Shown here piece after piece: positions 37,601 through 44,937 of a DNA stretch of 64,000 nucleotides. The stretch covers positions 47,244,001-47,308,000 of the forward strand of contig OX638161.1 in NCBI GenBank assembly GCA_951804945.1, in the 5' to 3' direction. This stretch comes from Podarcis cretensis. Taxonomy: Eukaryota. Both the position numbers and the translations under genes were made by a program. Positions within the stretch are counted from its first letter, which is position 1. The number at the start of each line of letters is the position of its first letter. The notes under the pieces are model-generated. The model had not been told where the DNA came from and did no database searches. It worked only from the letters and a program-made list of their open reading frames with translations.

Positions 37601-40552
37601 TGTGTAAGCACCGAACACCAATCCTGACGTGACTAAAACAATACCAGTTACTTTCTGTATTCAGTTCAAAGTGCATGATTTGACAGAGGACTCCCTCTCC
37701 TCTCCCGTATGAATGGTCTCAGACCCTTCTTATGCCCTTTTCTATGTGGCCATTCTACAGGAGGTCCAAAGAGTGGGGCCATGATGCAAACCTGACATTC
37801 CAAATCCCTCTATTTCAACTTTGAAATCAATATTACCTTGAAAGTACACTGATAATGAAGTTACCTTCGCAGACAGGGCTAATATTGTTTTCAAAACGAC
37901 AAAAACAAAAGAAAGAAAAAGAACAGAACAGGAAAAGTGCTTTAAGGTGTAGTACGATATATAGGTGCAAAAATAATCTTTGCTGAAATACACTTTGCTG
38001 AAACATAATGTGTCTCTGTGGGTGACATATATGAATGCGATTCAACCCCCTATTCCTTTCTATAGGTGCTTCCCTTTTCTTTGTGCAATGAACCCTGCCA
38101 CTCTGGTCATCAGAAGAAAAGGAAGGAAGGGGGGAAGTTTTGTTGCTATGATTGTGCTCCATGCCCAGAGGGGAAGATCTCAAACCAGACGGGTAGGTAA
38201 AGCTTTTGCATCCTGATGAACAAAAAATGAGACAGATACACAGGCTGGGCTTGAGCTGGGCCACTTTTATTTAGTGAACATAACAAGATCAGGAGAGGAG
38301 GATAAATTCTAAAGGCAGAACTGTAGCCATTGGGTGACACAAAGGGCATTTTTTAAGACAGAACTCACCGGAGCTCAGTTCTGGCACCTCTCCAGTGGGC
38401 AACATTGGCATTCTAAGAGAATGAGGGAAGTGTTCATGGTGAGTTGAAGCTGACTGAACCCTTGCCTGACTGGTCAGTTGTGGAGCAGAGCCTGCTCCCC
38501 TTCAATACATAAATCCTGAAAGAAAGAAAAAGATCTCGGAGAGGCAAAATATTTGGAGGAAGCTCAAAACAAACTAAGGAATAGGGGGAATTAGGGGCGT
38601 AGCAATCTAATGATCACCCATGCATACTGTAATGGTTGTGAGGGGGTTAGTTGTGCGTAAATTGCCTTCAGTTTAGTTAGATTGTTTGCTCAACCATGTT
38701 TAGGATTGGAGCTCGCCCTCCGTGACCTGTTAGTCACTTGCAGAATCCGTCAGTGGGCGTTTCTTGAATCTCTTCCAGCATAAAAGCTGTTTGACCCCAA
38801 GTCTCCTCCTATGTTCCCTGCATGGAACGTGTCTGCGCAAATAAGGGGAAGGCAGGGGCGTGCCAGCGCTCTCTCCGCTAGTTTCGCTTGAAGGGTCTTG
38901 GAGCCCTGACACCGCTTCCTCCATCTCCCTCTCCTCTCTATTGGTGTCACGCTGAATACCTTCCCCCCTGCTGGTTCCCTCTCCGGCATCGCTCTGGAGC
39001 CCTGCCTCCGCTTCTCGTTCTGATGTCAGTTCCCTGACACATACCCTGAATTGACAAGAGCTATGAAAGGAAAAGCCTAAGGCCAGGAAAGGAAAGCATT
39101 TGCTACCCTACAATGTCTGGTCTCCTATTGATTTTGAAACCCTGCCTGATCCTGCTTTGCTTTGCAATATAGCTAGCAGTTTATTGCTGCTTCAGGAGCA
39201 GCAAGAGTCCTCAGGTATCATCCAGCTACGACTGTGGGAGGGAGAGAAACCAAAAGCCCCAGCAAAGGAGGAAAAACCCTGGTAGGCTGGAATGTGCTTC
39301 TTCAAAAGATAGGAACTAGCAGGCTAAAAGAGAAAGGGAGCAGAGAGAGGCCTTTGCACTAATGAACAAGCGTTACAGGGGCTGGGAATCAAATCAAAGA
39401 TTTGCTCCTCATATAAGGCCCTAAAGCAGACCTCCCCAACTCATACCACTTTAAATGCGACAATATGTTCACTGCTAGTTGGTGTGCTGTCTCTCATGGC
39501 CAATGCGCCACAAATGTGCCTTGGCAGCCAGTCCTGCTGTGGTGGAATAGCCATAATGTACAATTTGTCACAAATCATGGTTCATTCAATACGCTAGGTC
39601 AGATGAATCAAAACTGAATTTCTATTTAAGCTTTGCTTTATGTTTATCAGATATGGACGCATGTTTCATTTGCCCGGAAGATCAATATCCAAACACGAAG
39701 AGAAATGGATGCATCCCCAAAGTTATGCATTTTCTGTCCTATGAAGAACCTTTAGGGATCACTTTAGCCTCTCTTAGTGTCTTATGTTCCCTGATTACTG
39801 TTTTGGTGTTGGCTATTTTTATCCAGCACAAAGATACCCCCATAGTCATAGCCAACAACCGAGAGCTCACCTACACTCTCCTCGTCTCCCTTCTGCTCTG
39901 CTTCCTCTCCTCTTTCCTTTTTCTCGGCCAACCTTGGAAAGTGACATGTCTTCTCCAACAACCTGCTTTTGGCATCACCTTCTCTGTAGCTGTTTCTTGT
40001 GTGTTGGCAAAGACCATTATTGTTTTTCTAGCATTCATAGCCACAAAGCCAGGATCTAAGATGAAGAAATGGGTGGGAAAGAGATTGGCTCATTCTATTG
40101 TCCTTTCAGCTTCCCTCATTCAAGTGGGTATCTGTACTCTGTGGCTGACAACGTCTCCACCCTTCCCTGATCTAGACATGAAATCAGTAGCTGAAGAAAG
40201 CATTGTGCAATGTAATGTTGGGTCTGTCACCATGTTCTATTGTGTTTTAGGCTACATGGGCCTCTTGGCCCTCACCAGCTTCATTGTGGCCTTCCTGGCC
40301 CGCAAGTTACCTGACAGTTTTAATGAAGCCCAGTTCATCACTTTCAGTATGTTAGCATTTTGCAGTGTTTGGATCTCTTTTGTTCCAACCTACCTGAGCA
40401 CAAGAGGGAAATACATGGTGGCTGTAGAGATCTTCTCCATCTTGGCCTCCAGTGCTGGGTTACTGGGTTGTATCTTTTCCCCGAAATGCTACATCATGGT
40501 GCTGAGGCCTGAACTGAACAGCAGGGATCAATTAATACGAAGAAAGGATTAA
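31423..40552 (+). CDS. V2R gene C, 6 exons, about 873 aa
   Basis: Exons 31423-31634, 34129-34420, 34670-35530, 36389-36616, 38066-38192, 39651-40552 (2622 nt, open frame). GT-AG sites and V2R motifs present. Confidence 0.92.
31754..33397 (-). mobile_element. L2-clade LINE fragment in intron 1 of gene C
   Basis: Near-identical to the gene A copy, including the junction to AGAAGGAGAAGCAGCATG. Confidence 0.85.
34564..34601. repeat. (TTA)n microsatellite
   Basis: Direct reading; intron 2 of gene C. Confidence 0.9.
38628..39039 (-). mobile_element. Solo LTR of a related Gypsy family, in intron 5 of gene C
   Basis: Reverse complement begins TGTCAGGGAACTG and ends AACCATTACA, as in the 40867 element. 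Perfect 5-bp TSD CATAC (38623-38627 and 39040-39044). The empty site GCATACCCTGAA is present in genes A and B. Confidence 0.9.
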
Positions 40553-41352
40553 GCCATCTGTCTGGTCTCATCATACCCTAATGTCTGTTGGAGAAGGCAG
40601 TTGGGAGAAAATACATGCATACAACATTAGTTATAGACATTCTTATTGAAGTTATCACTACACGTCTCTTCAAAGTTTAAGTTGTATTTCAGTTTCCCTG
40701 TTAGGGTACATAAGCAAATACTTTCTTCAGTTGTCTGACATGTTGATGTGTTCCATGATGAAATATTGATCTTTAAGCTTAATTTCTTCTACATCACGTA
40801 AATATTTTTTTATTGTGATGTACTGGACTCTGTTTTCCACTCAGGCCTTCATTGGATATTGATAGCTGTCAGGGAACTGCCATCGGACCAGAGGGAGAGG
40901 GACGGCTCCAGAGGGATTCCGGAGAGCGTCCCGGGAGGGAGAGAAGCAGCCCATCTTCTGGGGAAGGAAATCAGCGTAGCACCAGTGGAGAAGGGGGGCA
41001 GATGGGGGAATTGGCGAGATGGCTCCATGACTCCTTGCCGGAGACCAGCGGGGAGAGCACGGGTCCTCCGCTGCCCACACCCTCCCTGCACAGAAGGCTT
41101 CCGCGCAGGGAGAGTAGGCAGAGACTAGGCGTCAAAGAGCTTCTTTGCTGGAAGAAGTTCAAGAAATGCCCACTGATGGATTCTTTCAGCGATTGAGACA
41201 GCCACGGGTGAGTGGCTGTCCGGAGAGAAAGGGTTCACCCAGGTACCCCAGCCAAGCATGGCGCCGACTTACACACGAGCAACCCCTAGAACCATTACAG
41301 CAATCTGTCAGTCCCTGAAGTTGCTTGTGTACAACCCCAGAAAGGCAGCACG

Positions 41353-41835
41353 ATGAGCCAAAGAGGGACAGCCGGAGAGACGGAGCAACCAGCTGCAATG
41401 CAGAGTCTGGTAGAGAGGAATCGAGACTTGGAGCAGCATGTAGCTATCCTGACGGCACGGCTGGACGAAAGATGGGCTCAGGATGCACAGGTCAGACCCA
41501 TACCCATTGCAAGGAACGTACCGTGGCTGGTACATAAGTTTGGTGGGAAGCCCCAAGATTACAATGCTTTCCGAACGGAAGTACAGTACGCTTTGGAACT
41601 GCAGAAAGATGACTTTGCTGATGACGTGGAGAGGGTGGCTTACATTGTGGGGCATCTGCAGGATGGGGCGCGCAAATGGATCAGGCCCCTGGTGGCAATG
41701 CAAAATGATGCCTTGAAGGACCTTAATAAATTCTTCCAGGCGATGGATGCGATGTACTCCAGTGAGGTAGAGCAAAGTGTGACTCGGCGGGAACTGATGG
41801 GGTGGAAGCAGGGGAGACTAATCAGCCCGGATTAA
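41353..41835 (+). pseudogene. Gypsy (sushi-like) gag, 3' truncated
   Basis: KFGGKPQDYNAFRTEVQYALELQKDDFADDVERVAYIVGHLQDGARKW. It ends at a deletion junction that removes the protease. Confidence 0.8.
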
Positions 41836-42189
41836 TCGTGGATTACAGAGCCTTGAACCTGGTCTCAGAACCCGTGACCTTCCAAATGCCCAGGATTGAC
41901 GACATGCTCAACCAGAGACAGATTTGATGTGCCCAGGAGTTCTCTAAGTTTTCCATTGAGATCAGATACGTGCCGGGAGAGGAAAATGTAAGAGCAGATG
42001 CTCTCTCCCGGAAACCAGAGTACATGGAAGGAGAGGGACCACCGGACATCCGGCACGTGTTTCCCGAAGACCGATGGGTGTGTGGGGGAGCGTTGGTTGG
42101 GAAATGAGAACTGGCAGGGCTTACTAGAGATGACGCGTTCGCTCAAGCAAAAACTCCGGGACGGAAGGGAAGACCATGGAGGGTTTGAG

Positions 42190-43430
42190 GAAAAGGAAGG
42201 GCTACTGTACTATAAGGGGGCACTGTATGTACCGGGGAAGACCTTGAGGGGGAAGGTATTGAAACAACTCCATGACAGCCCAACAGCTGGGCACTTTGGA
42301 CAGCACAAGACCATGCTGCTCGTCACCAGGCAGTTCTGGTGGCCAAAGGTGAGGGAAGACGTACGGGTATATGTACGGGGGTGCGACTGATGCCAGAGGG
42401 CAAAGGGGGAGAGGGCTGCCCCCGCAGGGTTACTGGAACCCTTACCTACACCTGGAAGGCCCTGGGAGGTGGTGTCCATTGATTTTATGACAGATTTGCC
42501 CAAGTCAAGGGGGAAGACAGCAGTCATGGTAGTAGTCGATCTACTGACAAAATGTGCCATTTCATAGCTTGCTCACATGCGGTGATGGCAGAGGAGACAG
42601 CCAGGTTGTTTGTGGATCACATTTTCAGGCTGCATGGGGCTCCCTCGAGGGTAATCTCGCATCGCGAGAAACAATTTACTTCCAGGTTCTGGAGGAAGCT
42701 CATGAGCTTGCTACAGGTCGAGGTAGGCTTCTCGACGGCAAGGCACCCAGAAACCAACGGACAAGCAGAAAGAGTGAACGGTATACTCCAGCAATACCTA
42801 CGCTGCTACGTCAGCGAGAGACAGAACGATTGGGTTGAGAAACTAGCGTTGGCTGAATTTGCGTACAATAACGCTGAACACGTGTCCACGGGAATGAGCC
42901 CATTCATGGCCAATTATGGGTGTCACCCCAGGGCCTTCCCGGGGAGGGGGGAGGAAGGATGGAGTGTACCCGCAGCTGAGCAGTTTGTAGAAGAAATGGA
43001 GGCCTTGCACCAGCAACTCCAGATGAACTTGGAGTGGGCCAAGGAAGTTTACAAGAGGCAGGCGGACAAGCACCGTCGGGAGGGGGAGGCCATACGGGTG
43101 AGAGACTGGCTGTGGTTGTCAACCCAAGGGTTACCCCTCGAGGGAGGGTGCAAGAAGTTGCAGCCGAGGCGGCTGGGGCCTTTTGAGGTAACACAGCAGG
43201 TGAACCTAGTGGCATTCAAACTCAAGTTGCCTGACAGCATGAAGATACATCCGGTGTTCCATAGGTCCCTACTTTCACCGTACAGGGAGGGGCGGGAATT
43301 TCCGGGGCGTGAGGGAGGAGTCACCACCCACCCGCTGGTAGAGGAGAGGGAACACAGCAACCACACCACGGAAATACTCGATTCAAGGTGGCGAAGTCGC
43401 CAGGTGGAGTACTTGGTGGGTCCCCGCTGA
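42190..43430 (+). pseudogene. Gypsy integrase with chromodomain remnant, disrupted
   Basis: HHCC zinc finger with an internal TGA, a frameshift near 42552, the catalytic core, RRLGPFEV...IHPVFHRSLL, and the start of a chromodomain. Confidence 0.85.
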
Positions 43431-44937
43431 ATCAATCAATGACTACTATCTGGTGGGGGAATTCCACGGTTTGTTCCCGGATAAGCCAAAACCACTAGCG
43501 AGATTCTCGGAGGAAGAATTTGGAACCACAGATGACGAAGAGGACTTTGTGGGTTTTCCTGCCTCCGAAGGGGAGGGAGGGGAGGTGTCAGAGGGAGAAG
43601 AATCAGACTGGGAGTTCCCCCTGCAGGAAGAGATATGAGCGGGTGGGAAGCTGGTTTCGAATCCTCAGAGGATGGTGACAGCTCCTTGAGGGGATTCCCC
43701 GCGTCGTCGGCTGAGGAAAGAGACAAGGTTGAATTGGAAAATCGCGTGGGGGGAAGGGAGTCCTGGGGAGGAGGTGGATGTCAGGAAACTGCCATCAGAG
43801 CCAGAGGGAGAGGAAGGGCTCCAGAGGGATTCCGGAGAGCGTCCTGGGAGGGAGAGAAGCAGCCCATCTTCTGGGGAAGGAAATCAGCGTAGCACCAGTG
43901 GAGAAGGGGGGCAGATGGGAGAATCGGCGAGGCGGTCCCATGACTCCTCGCCAGGAACCAGCGGGGAGAACATGGGTCCTCCGCTGCCCACACCCTCCCT
44001 GCGCAGAAGGCTTCCGCGCAGGGAGAGTAGGCGGAGACTAGGCGTCAAAGAGCTTCTTTGCTGGAAGAAGTTCAAGAAACGCCCACTGACGGATTCTGCC
44101 AGCGATTGAGACAACCACAGGTGAGTGGCTGTCCGGACAGAAAGGGTTCACCCAGGTACCCCAGCCAAGCATGGCGCCGACTTACGCACGAGCAACCCCT
44201 AGAACCATTACAAAGCTGTGATGGGTCCCTTCATTTCTGTATCAGAATTTCTCATTTTATTAGTTGAAAATAAAAAAAATCTATTTGTGTTTTGTTACAT
44301 GTGCTGTGGATTCTTTCTATTTCTTTACTCTGGAAGTTTTTCAACAAAGAGATGTTGTGGTTGAGTAAAACTGTCAGTATCATTTCTCTCAGTTTCTTGT
44401 TCTTTTGAACTTTAATCCATCTTTCATTTCCAAAGCAAATTGCTATATACTCATTTTTTTAAAAAACAAACAACCCAAGAACCCCTCATGATTAATTCCG
44501 TGTTTTAGTAGTCATTTCTCCTGATATACACTTTTCTCAATCCAATATTTCCTAATAGAATGGATTTTCATGTTATTTCTATAAATATATGCATTGGTTG
44601 CATATCTCCCCCAAAATGATTTATTGGAGAGCTGTGACACAAAGTACAAAGACGTTCCAATTTTCAATGATAGCTGTGTTTTGGCTTGCATATTGTGTCA
44701 AGAAAAGAGAATGTTAGTTTCTTCTTACAATGCAAAGAGAATCAAATTTCTCCACCACAAACAGCATGTCATGATTCTTTTTAATTAAGAAAATTATAGT
44801 GTAACCCAGAATTGGAAAGGAGAACCAGAACCATTTACTTGGGGTTATTTTCAGTTCATTCAGTCTATTTGATCTGGGGAAGATATTTGAGAGTATGTGA
44901 CCTATCACAAAAATCTTAGCCCTTTTCCTTATTGACT

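Follow-up and report, generated by a model that had tools for sequence, protein, structure and literature searches.

The reading frame that crosses the 3' LTR of a Gypsy element of the lizard Podarcis cretensis encodes the C-terminus of the pol polyprotein (integrase) in a clade of Tf1/sushi-type chromoviruses. A single frame leads from the chromodomain across an acidic linker and the polypurine tract and through the whole of U3. The integrase continues across its own terminal repeat, about 200 residues beyond its usual end. The last 38 codons are a selected peptide under purifying selection and the first 54 LTR codons are a near-neutral spacer, because two independent sets of dN/dS values separate these two parts. 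Upstream of the LTR lie two acidic repeats that, as judged from their residues, appear to have the anatomy of a LEDGF/HRP2-binding motif: a helix-anchor Phe, an acidic Ser/Thr linker and FxGF.

The element and its pol frame in the 3' LTR

In the window, that is, the whole 64-kb stretch of DNA analysed, a Gypsy element that has lost part of its interior occupies 40867-44212, and a sister family is represented by a solo LTR on the minus strand (38628-39039). The features are as follows.

38628..39039, minus strand: solo LTR of the sister family B, with the same frame and a perfect 5-bp target-site duplication
40867..41299, plus strand: 5' LTR (TG...CA) of the internally deleted Gypsy chromovirus copy (family A), from alignment
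41172..41182, plus strand: self-primer site in the 5' LTR, the putative RNA 5' end (R start), from complementarity to the primer-binding site
41290..41835, plus strand: gag remnant (PF16297 and PF03732, both under cut-off; blastn against L155)
41302..41312, plus strand: primer-binding site of the Tf1/sushi self-priming type, 2 nt 3' of the 5' LTR, from the duplex survey
41992..43430, plus strand: integrase with zinc finger, core and SH3/GPF domain (PF17921, 6.6e-19; PF24626, 1.9e-17; PF00665 under cut-off)
43350..43480, plus strand, ends approximate: chromodomain of type II, without the first and third aromatic-cage residues (PF00385, 1.7e-10 in the copy L093)
43501..43557, plus strand: FxGF motif 1 with helix-anchor Phe, acidic Thr linker and D-E-E-D-F-V-G-F, a candidate LEDGF/HRP2-binding motif
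43644..43697, plus strand: FxGF motif 2, with Leu at the first Phe of FxGF in the window copy
43765..43778, plus strand: polypurine tract, translated in frame as a Gly-rich stretch in intact copies
43779..44212, plus strand: 3' LTR, from alignment
43780..44109, plus strand: LTR-coded end of pol, 109 aa, passing from a weakly constrained spacer through a Ser/Pro stretch to a basic motif
43990..44084, plus strand: Arg-rich stretch ending in hydrophobic-Leu-x-Trp, overlapping the putative core-promoter zone
44085..44095, plus strand: self-primer sequence in the 3' LTR, within the last codons of the frame

This copy is decayed. About 2.3 kb directly 3' of the gag remnant, comprising the end of gag, protease, RT and most of RNase H, are gone (blastn against L155), and the integrase is interrupted by stops and frameshifts. 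The self-primer of its 5' LTR pairs with the primer-binding site through a duplex that includes two G-U pairs. The element lies about 300 nt past a 7tm_3 exon (PF00003; window 39557-40552) of a vomeronasal-type receptor gene, and the solo LTR lies about 500 nt upstream of this exon. This arrangement lies in a roughly 15-kb tandem duplication (window 30000-52000).

The first look at the genome gave 2926 candidates for one LTR, 3035 for the other and 6827 for the terminal peptide; 40, 40 and 150 of these, respectively, were scored. Most of the 30 LTR loci taken for each of families A and B were solo LTRs with 5-bp duplications; such duplications flanked 21 of 30 family-A and at least 23 of 30 family-B LTR matches. 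The characters of a Ty3/Gypsy chromovirus were found, namely TG..CA LTRs, a 5-bp target-site duplication, RT-RH-IN order and a chromodomain at the C-terminus of integrase. A chromodomain search and 60 fetched stretches added families D, E, F, G and H and the more distant family C.

The frame at 43780-44109 encodes 109 aa followed by a stop, and the solo LTR is also open in the same phase, as the reading made from the sequence alone had described. Alignment reproduced the 21-nt in-frame gap between the two LTRs, and the last 24 codons again differed by 7 silent and 2 conservative changes. Among loci chosen by DNA likeness only, 28 of 30 copies in family A and 23 of 30 in family B had an open pol frame over the first 99 LTR codons. 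The other two sense frames were open in only 2 and 1 (A) and 0 and 1 (B) of the 30 loci each; therefore, the LTR frame is more than chance. The distance from LTR start to stop in six families was 331, 310, 304, 304, 307 and 304 nt, all in one phase. In contrast, the gaps between LTR families after the stop are of 1-3 nt. The parts beyond the stop had been said to barely align; they are alignable, with a mean between-family p-distance of 0.41.

The frame is also open toward the chromodomain. In 14 of 29 family-A 3' ends it ran uninterrupted from the chromodomain to the terminal motif, by way of the acidic linker, polypurine tract and LTR, which upholds the proposal that an acidic repeated segment links the chromodomain to the LTR frame across the polypurine tract; 18 of the 29 were in this frame if stops were allowed. 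Family B showed the same read-through. Family D includes young copies (LTR pairs 98-100% identical) whose pol frames reach 1334 aa, with the stop 304-310 nt inside the 3' LTR, and the pol frames of family H are of 1563 aa. Read-through from the chromodomain across the polypurine tract into U3, which the sequence-only reading had wished to see in intact copies, was thus present in families A, B and D. In all families with the junction seen, the LTR begins at the identical codon position. Three deletions are found in the window copy alone: 35 nt of the chromodomain near 43416, which 29 of 29 sister 3' ends keep, a single nucleotide around 43614-43620, and 1-3 nt from the G-run around 43740-43752. 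What had been taken for two compensating 1-nt frameshifts are therefore lesions private to this copy, from its own decay after insertion.

Podarcis predicted proteins already include the tail under generic names. The named relatives with a tail are P. muralis and P. lilfordi records only, plus P0166 and P0186; this does not imply that the tail is absent from other squamates, since transposon proteins are poorly annotated. One P. muralis model of a phospholipid-transporting ATPase (P0001) ends in the last 46 residues of the LTR frame, by exonisation or mis-annotation. Two chromovirus pols of Labeo rohita (P0029, P0034) continue past a Gly-rich, purine-tract-like stretch after the chromodomain. 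Family-A LTRs have a strong splice-donor-like CAG/GTGAGT right after the stop (44117-44126 and the matching place of the 5' LTR), which the family-B LTR does not have. Four presumed-RNA sequencing runs gave only short contigs on the copy L098 and were uninformative on start, strand and level.

Pfam contained no family for the LTR frame or the linker, the ESM Atlas gave nothing for the tail (its residues 1-140 gave chromodomain clusters only), and the PDB profile search with the U3 end gave a single chance match. The AlphaFold2 model of the tail was confident for the chromodomain only, with one short helix at the Leu-Leu-Cys-Trp region, and shows the tail as disordered.

For the measurement of selection, 27 natural copies were picked for an open frame ending in Cys-Trp and a stop, so it is this choice that makes the frames free of stops and the Cys-Trp invariant. 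Net dN/dS (minus the within-family divergence, 60 bootstraps) was calculated for 24 of the 27 copies, representing six families, with L161, L194 and L197 left out. The value was 0.16 for the chromodomain and 0.30 [0.23-0.42] for the whole LTR part, in which the first 54 codons gave 0.56 and the last 38, the basic end in U3, gave 0.17 [0.10-0.35] at a dS of 1.07. The 20 Arg-rich codons upstream of the promoter zone gave 0.27 [0.13-0.59] at a dS of 0.96. For the acidic repeats, the values were 0.10 [0.06-0.27] in FxGF motif 1, 0.17 [0.07-0.32] in motif 2 and 0.36 in the spacer between them. In 10 copies, the distances of the basic end at the three codon positions were 0.286/0.118/0.401, pN/pS was the lowest among the six frames, and 2dlnL against omega = 1 was 66 (kappa gridded). 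The independent set of 30 A and 30 B LTR loci, chosen by DNA likeness, gave 0.30 overall, 1.21 for the first 54 codons and 0.16 for the last 38. An integrase tail in U3 under purifying selection, in a layout like that of plant CRM elements, had been proposed from the sequence and is borne out by the read-through together with the value of 0.17; the dN/dS of the whole U3 frame and the single phase of the six family lengths agree with it.

A sequence 2 nt 3' of the 5' LTR pairs perfectly, over 10-11 nt, with an LTR-internal site in 13 of 19 elements, with 8 different co-varying sequences. The feature of the Tf1/sushi group, a self-priming primer-binding site complementary to an LTR site, was thereby found in these 13 of 19 elements; self-priming is described for that group in the available part of PMC6317226. 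The position of the self-primer places the putative RNA start at 44085 in terms of the 3' LTR; therefore, the frame would span U3 and end 25 nt into R, in line with a stop about 25 nt beyond the start of the self-primer site. Only 7-10 codons separate the primer start from the stop of pol in families A, B, D, E and H, so these codons would serve protein, promoter zone and primer simultaneously. The last 8 codons contain the self-priming site, and dS there is 0.41 against about 1 elsewhere. The conservation of the last 24 codons at the protein level, stressed by the sequence-only reading, therefore stands as far as purifying selection on the last 38 codons goes (0.17), while a part of it, in the last 8 codons, is constraint at the DNA level. 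The Leu-Leu-Cys-Trp codons lie about 23-32 nt upstream of the self-primer and, in families B, D and H, fall on an AT-rich TATA-like hexamer; in family A this hexamer is altered silently and Leu-Leu is kept. The Trp of the terminal stretch is common to families A, B, D, E, F and H and to the relative P0186.

Acidic FxGF repeats and the chromodomain cage

Each acidic repeat consists of hydrophobic-x-Glu-x-Phe, a linker of Thr/Ser and Asp/Glu, and Phe-x-Gly-Phe. According to PMC9987994, of which a part was available, a TIM combines a helix anchor, an acidic Ser/Thr linker of 8-16 aa phosphorylated by CK2, and FxGF; FxGF is described there as present in all known LEDGF and HRP2 TIM partners, and JPO2 and IWS1 as carrying tandem TIMs. 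The linkers of the lizard repeats are of 9-10 aa, acidic and rich in Ser/Thr, and fit this range. In both repeats, 27 of 27 copies have the anchor Phe and the F, G and F of FxGF, each encoded by synonymous codons; these residues had no part in the pattern by which the 27 copies had been selected. Upstream of the anchor Phe stands Phe, Trp or Leu. In the model of the free tail, made without a partner, no helix was predicted at the anchors (pLDDT about 45-60).

The motif is used by PogZ, JPO2, IWS1 and JIL-1 (excerpts of PMC7835958 and bioRxiv 10.1101/624023), and its published consensus is D/ExExFxGF (PMC8022399, in part). For motif 1, this strict form fits 12 of 27 copies plus that of the window (43534-43557) and fails in 15 of 27; for motif 2, it fits 0 of 27. 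The exceptions to FxGF itself are P. muralis pols P0002-4, with Leu or Met at the first Phe of motif 1, the second repeat of family G, which reads FLDF, and motif 2 of the window copy. Families E and H have one motif each, and the linker of H is Ser/Thr-rich and barely acidic.

A looser search pattern, tuned after the motif had been seen, occurred once in 0.3-0.6% and twice in 0 of 20000 shuffles of six linkers. It was found in 5 of 44 retrieved proteins, all of them pols of the lizard clade, in 6 of 150 profile matches, all of them relatives of the clade, and once in the six frames of the window. The distant relative P0186 carries it and ends in Leu-Leu-Cys-Trp. Profiles of the motif gave only 4 and 3 PDB sequences at E<=10 out of 177635. 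The LEDGF-JPO2 fusion 5yi9 was among them both times, aligned on its motif, at E values of 3.9 and 1.9, which are not significant, and an unrelated Numb peptide scored higher. The likeness to that SFRGF peptide of Numb was dropped because its upstream basic residue is absent from the lizard motifs. The adaptor-ear acidic-Phe, FFAT and eIF4E-binding motifs were also dropped, as their key positions are not those of the repeats. The predicted complex of the lizard LEDGF IBD (P0048, residues 398-490) with motif 1 (36 aa of L093) scored 0.25 against a mark of 0.34, in a single-sequence prediction with no folded controls by a tool unproven on peptides. The host genome contains the IBD exons of LEDGF and HRP2, and the LEDGF exon is 96% identical to Podarcis PSIP1.

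The chromodomain next to the repeats has lost its cage. In alignment with HP1, family A has Asn/Trp/Glu where HP1 has Tyr/Trp/Tyr; it is not a type I (methyl-lysine cage) chromodomain, and cage loss of this kind is the type II pattern in the available part of PMC3059260. The cage of B, D, E, F and P0186 is as in family A, family H is without Trp too, and family C keeps all three residues (Y-W-Y). In the integrase-only tree (31 rows, midpoint root; five intended rows including family G dropped for want of an open stretch), A, B, D, E, F and H formed a clade with support of 100/98 and C was placed as its sister with 88/88. This tree contained no named V-clade reference elements, and family C is likely, from these integrase sequences, the sister of the FxGF clade. 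Family C keeps the cage and has no FxGF. Loss of the cage and gain of FxGF would then coincide, as a single evolutionary contrast of one clade with one sister.

Family H is very young. Its chromodomain has lost the Trp, it carries a single FxGF motif, and its LTR encodes roughly 200 aa (the start being judged from PPT-TGTCAGG). In family C, with its intact Y-W-Y chromodomain, pol also crosses into the 3' LTR, in the same phase and for 355 nt, and its frame ends in an Arg-rich stretch with RRSARL, which we take to resemble the HMGN nucleosome-binding core. Over its last 28 codons, net pN was 0.006 against a pS of 0.13 (14 copies); a PDB profile search with this end gave no match.

Insertion sites and explanations of the tail

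Copies were found on all large contigs, with a partial bias to both chromosome ends. The part of the genome within 3 Mb of an end should receive 7.6% of copies, and contained 10 of 31 family-H elements, 12 of 39 family-A 3' ends, 23 of 100 mixed B/D/E/F/G elements and 4 of 42 family-C elements; all these lists are top-scoring matches, and the family labels of the chromodomain list were only partly checked by translation. Elements of the FxGF clade with internal sequence accounted for 45 of 170 against 4 of 42 for family C (Fisher p 0.023). Lists made up mostly of solo LTRs were not enriched at 3 Mb (A 1 of 39, B 3 of 37); of a further 150 family-A LTR matches, 13 lay inside this limit (p 0.07) and 43 inside one of 10 Mb (p 0.001). 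Copies with internal sequence, in other words, cluster near both ends, and mostly solo LTRs do so little or not at all. The sampled chromosome ends were mostly richer in GC and CpG. GC and CpG in the 10-kb flanks did not differ between H, C and arbitrary sites (20 of each; p 0.29-0.99), and no consistent bias between small and large chromosomes was seen. The insertion-site evidence is thus mixed; the end bias is suggestive of targeting at best, and could reflect that full-length copies are retained there.

As a candidate for targeting, the two acidic FxGF repeats that precede the LTR, which the sequence-only reading had noticed without recognising them, are better characterised than the basic U3 end that it favoured. 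We see an even chance that the tail is a disordered docking strip that tethers integrase to H3K36me-marked chromatin via LEDGF/HRP2 through its two FxGF motifs, convergently with lentiviruses. For this, the tail would stay on the mature integrase, casein kinase 2 would phosphorylate the acidic Ser/Thr linkers, and the FxGF motifs would bind LEDGF/HRP2, whose PWWP domain reads H3K36me2/3. Such binding could bias insertion to transcribed chromatin and replace the disabled chromodomain. The Arg-rich/Leu-x-Trp end in U3 would probably act in nuclear import or as a second chromatin or DNA contact. The first half of the LTR-coded part is a spacer, open only so that the end gets translated. The wider proposal falls slightly short of an even chance in our judgement: the clade would have disabled its methyl-reading chromodomain and independently captured LEDGF/HRP2 by copying the host FxGF docking motif in tandem, as the first mobile element with a TIM as integration tether, with a second docking helix coded in the LTR on top of promoter and self-primer.

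The tail may instead be a real, selected integrase extension whose FxGF motifs bind another partner. This could come from the host (another TFIIS-N-terminal-domain (TND) protein, a histone chaperone or a Pol II/III factor) or be part of the element itself (Gag, the chromodomain or the basic end). We consider this reading unlikely, though a serious competitor, since motifs built on acidic residues and Phe are generic, motif 2 does not conform to the LEDGF consensus, and the acidic repeats and the basic end could pair intramolecularly. The available part of PMC9987994 counts at least 15 human TND proteins, but describes the FxGF role as unique to LEDGF and HRP2 among them, and 27 of 27 copies keep the Gly that separates the Phe residues. 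It is rather improbable that the motifs bind LEDGF/HRP2 for protein stability, nuclear retention or transcription of the element and not for the choice of site. Flank composition without a signal and near-uniform solo LTRs would fit such a role, and the fly JIL-1 is stabilised by an FxGF-LEDGF-domain contact (bioRxiv 10.1101/624023, in part); however, the motifs stand at the integrase C-terminus, where MLV (BET) and CRM (CR motif) bear targeting modules, and they adjoin a chromodomain without a cage.

That the LTR-coded part is a mere nuclear localisation signal or passive read-through, conserved only through promoter and self-primer DNA, is very improbable, and the passive version is already largely refuted by the dN/dS results. 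The near-neutral first 54 LTR codons (0.56 in six families; 1.21 for A vs B), the self-primer in the last codons (dS 0.41) and the position of Leu-Leu-Cys-Trp on the TATA-like hexamer in families B, D and H would agree with it. Against this, the Arg-rich codons upstream of the promoter zone give 0.27 at a dS of 0.96, family A changed its hexamer silently while retaining Leu-Leu, and this explanation is silent on the FxGF repeats, which lie outside the LTR. An accessory protein similar to nef or sag, made separately from spliced or LTR-initiated RNA, had also been offered as a candidate and hardly deserves credence, as the frame is continuous with pol in every family examined, the LTR start has no start codon, and the putative transcription start falls at the end of the frame. 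The frame kept in solo LTRs and the Podarcis gene model P0001, which ends in the LTR-frame peptide, are the points in its favour.

If the docking of integrase to LEDGF/HRP2 is true, it would give a testable answer to how chromoviruses without a cage pick their sites, with family C, which keeps the cage and lacks FxGF, as a control built into the genome. The clade is numerous, with about 3000 LTR candidates at first look in either of families A and B, and partly young, so its targeting would shape these lizard genomes.

Comparison with known systems

A pol that extends beyond the start of the 3' LTR has a precedent in plant CRM elements (PMC3059260, PMC3605345, both available in part), and the new point would be the paired FxGF repeats. 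As in the lizard clade, the integrase frame of CRM group A enters the 3' LTR and has a putative targeting module there (the same two sources and PMC6317226, in part). In CRM, the CR motif replaces the chromodomain and the copies are centromeric, whereas the lizard clade keeps a cage-less chromodomain and its copies are dispersed. The lizard clade also differs in its two FxGF motifs before the LTR and in its self-primer, against the tRNA-Met primer-binding site of CRM. The LTR frame, where CRM has its CR motif, gave no Pfam match.

The V-clade of Tf1/sushi elements (Sushi-ichi, Amn-ichi/ni/san; PMC6317226, in part) shares with the lizard clade the chromodomain integrase, the self-priming primer-binding site, the LTR start TGTCA.. 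and a vertebrate host. In the excerpts of PMC3601003, Sushi LTRs are described without a coding frame. The retrieved pols of fish and other chromoviruses, unlike those of the lizard clade, had no tail of 200-400 aa and no FxGF repeats, and some Labeo proteins pass a purine-rich stretch. Our literature searches, which covered open papers, found no vertebrate or lizard Gypsy element with a selected integrase tail spanning the LTR, and no link of a retrotransposon with LEDGF or FxGF.

The cellular TIM/IBM ligands JPO2, IWS1, MLL1, PogZ and JIL-1 resemble the lizard motifs in their anchor Phe, acidic Ser/Thr linker, FxGF, tandem arrangement and disorder (PMC9987994, PMC8022399, bioRxiv 10.1101/624023, each in part). 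These ligands are host proteins with measured binding, whereas the lizard motifs belong to a mobile element, are known from sequence and agree with the consensus partly.

HIV integrase grips the IBD via folded domains and not through an FxGF peptide. If the proposal for the lizard tail is true, a retrotransposon would have reached the lentiviral reader via a short linear motif of the host, which would be a clear convergence. The viral-mimicry section in the available text of PMC9987994 names lentiviral integrases only and no transposon case. In the lentiviral integrase-LEDGF and MLV integrase-BET systems, a chromatin reader steers insertion (PMC9987994, PMC8149907, in part), as would be the case for the lizard tail. 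MLV also uses a flexible C-terminal tail of integrase, like the lizard clade, but with another reader, BET (PMC8149907, in part).
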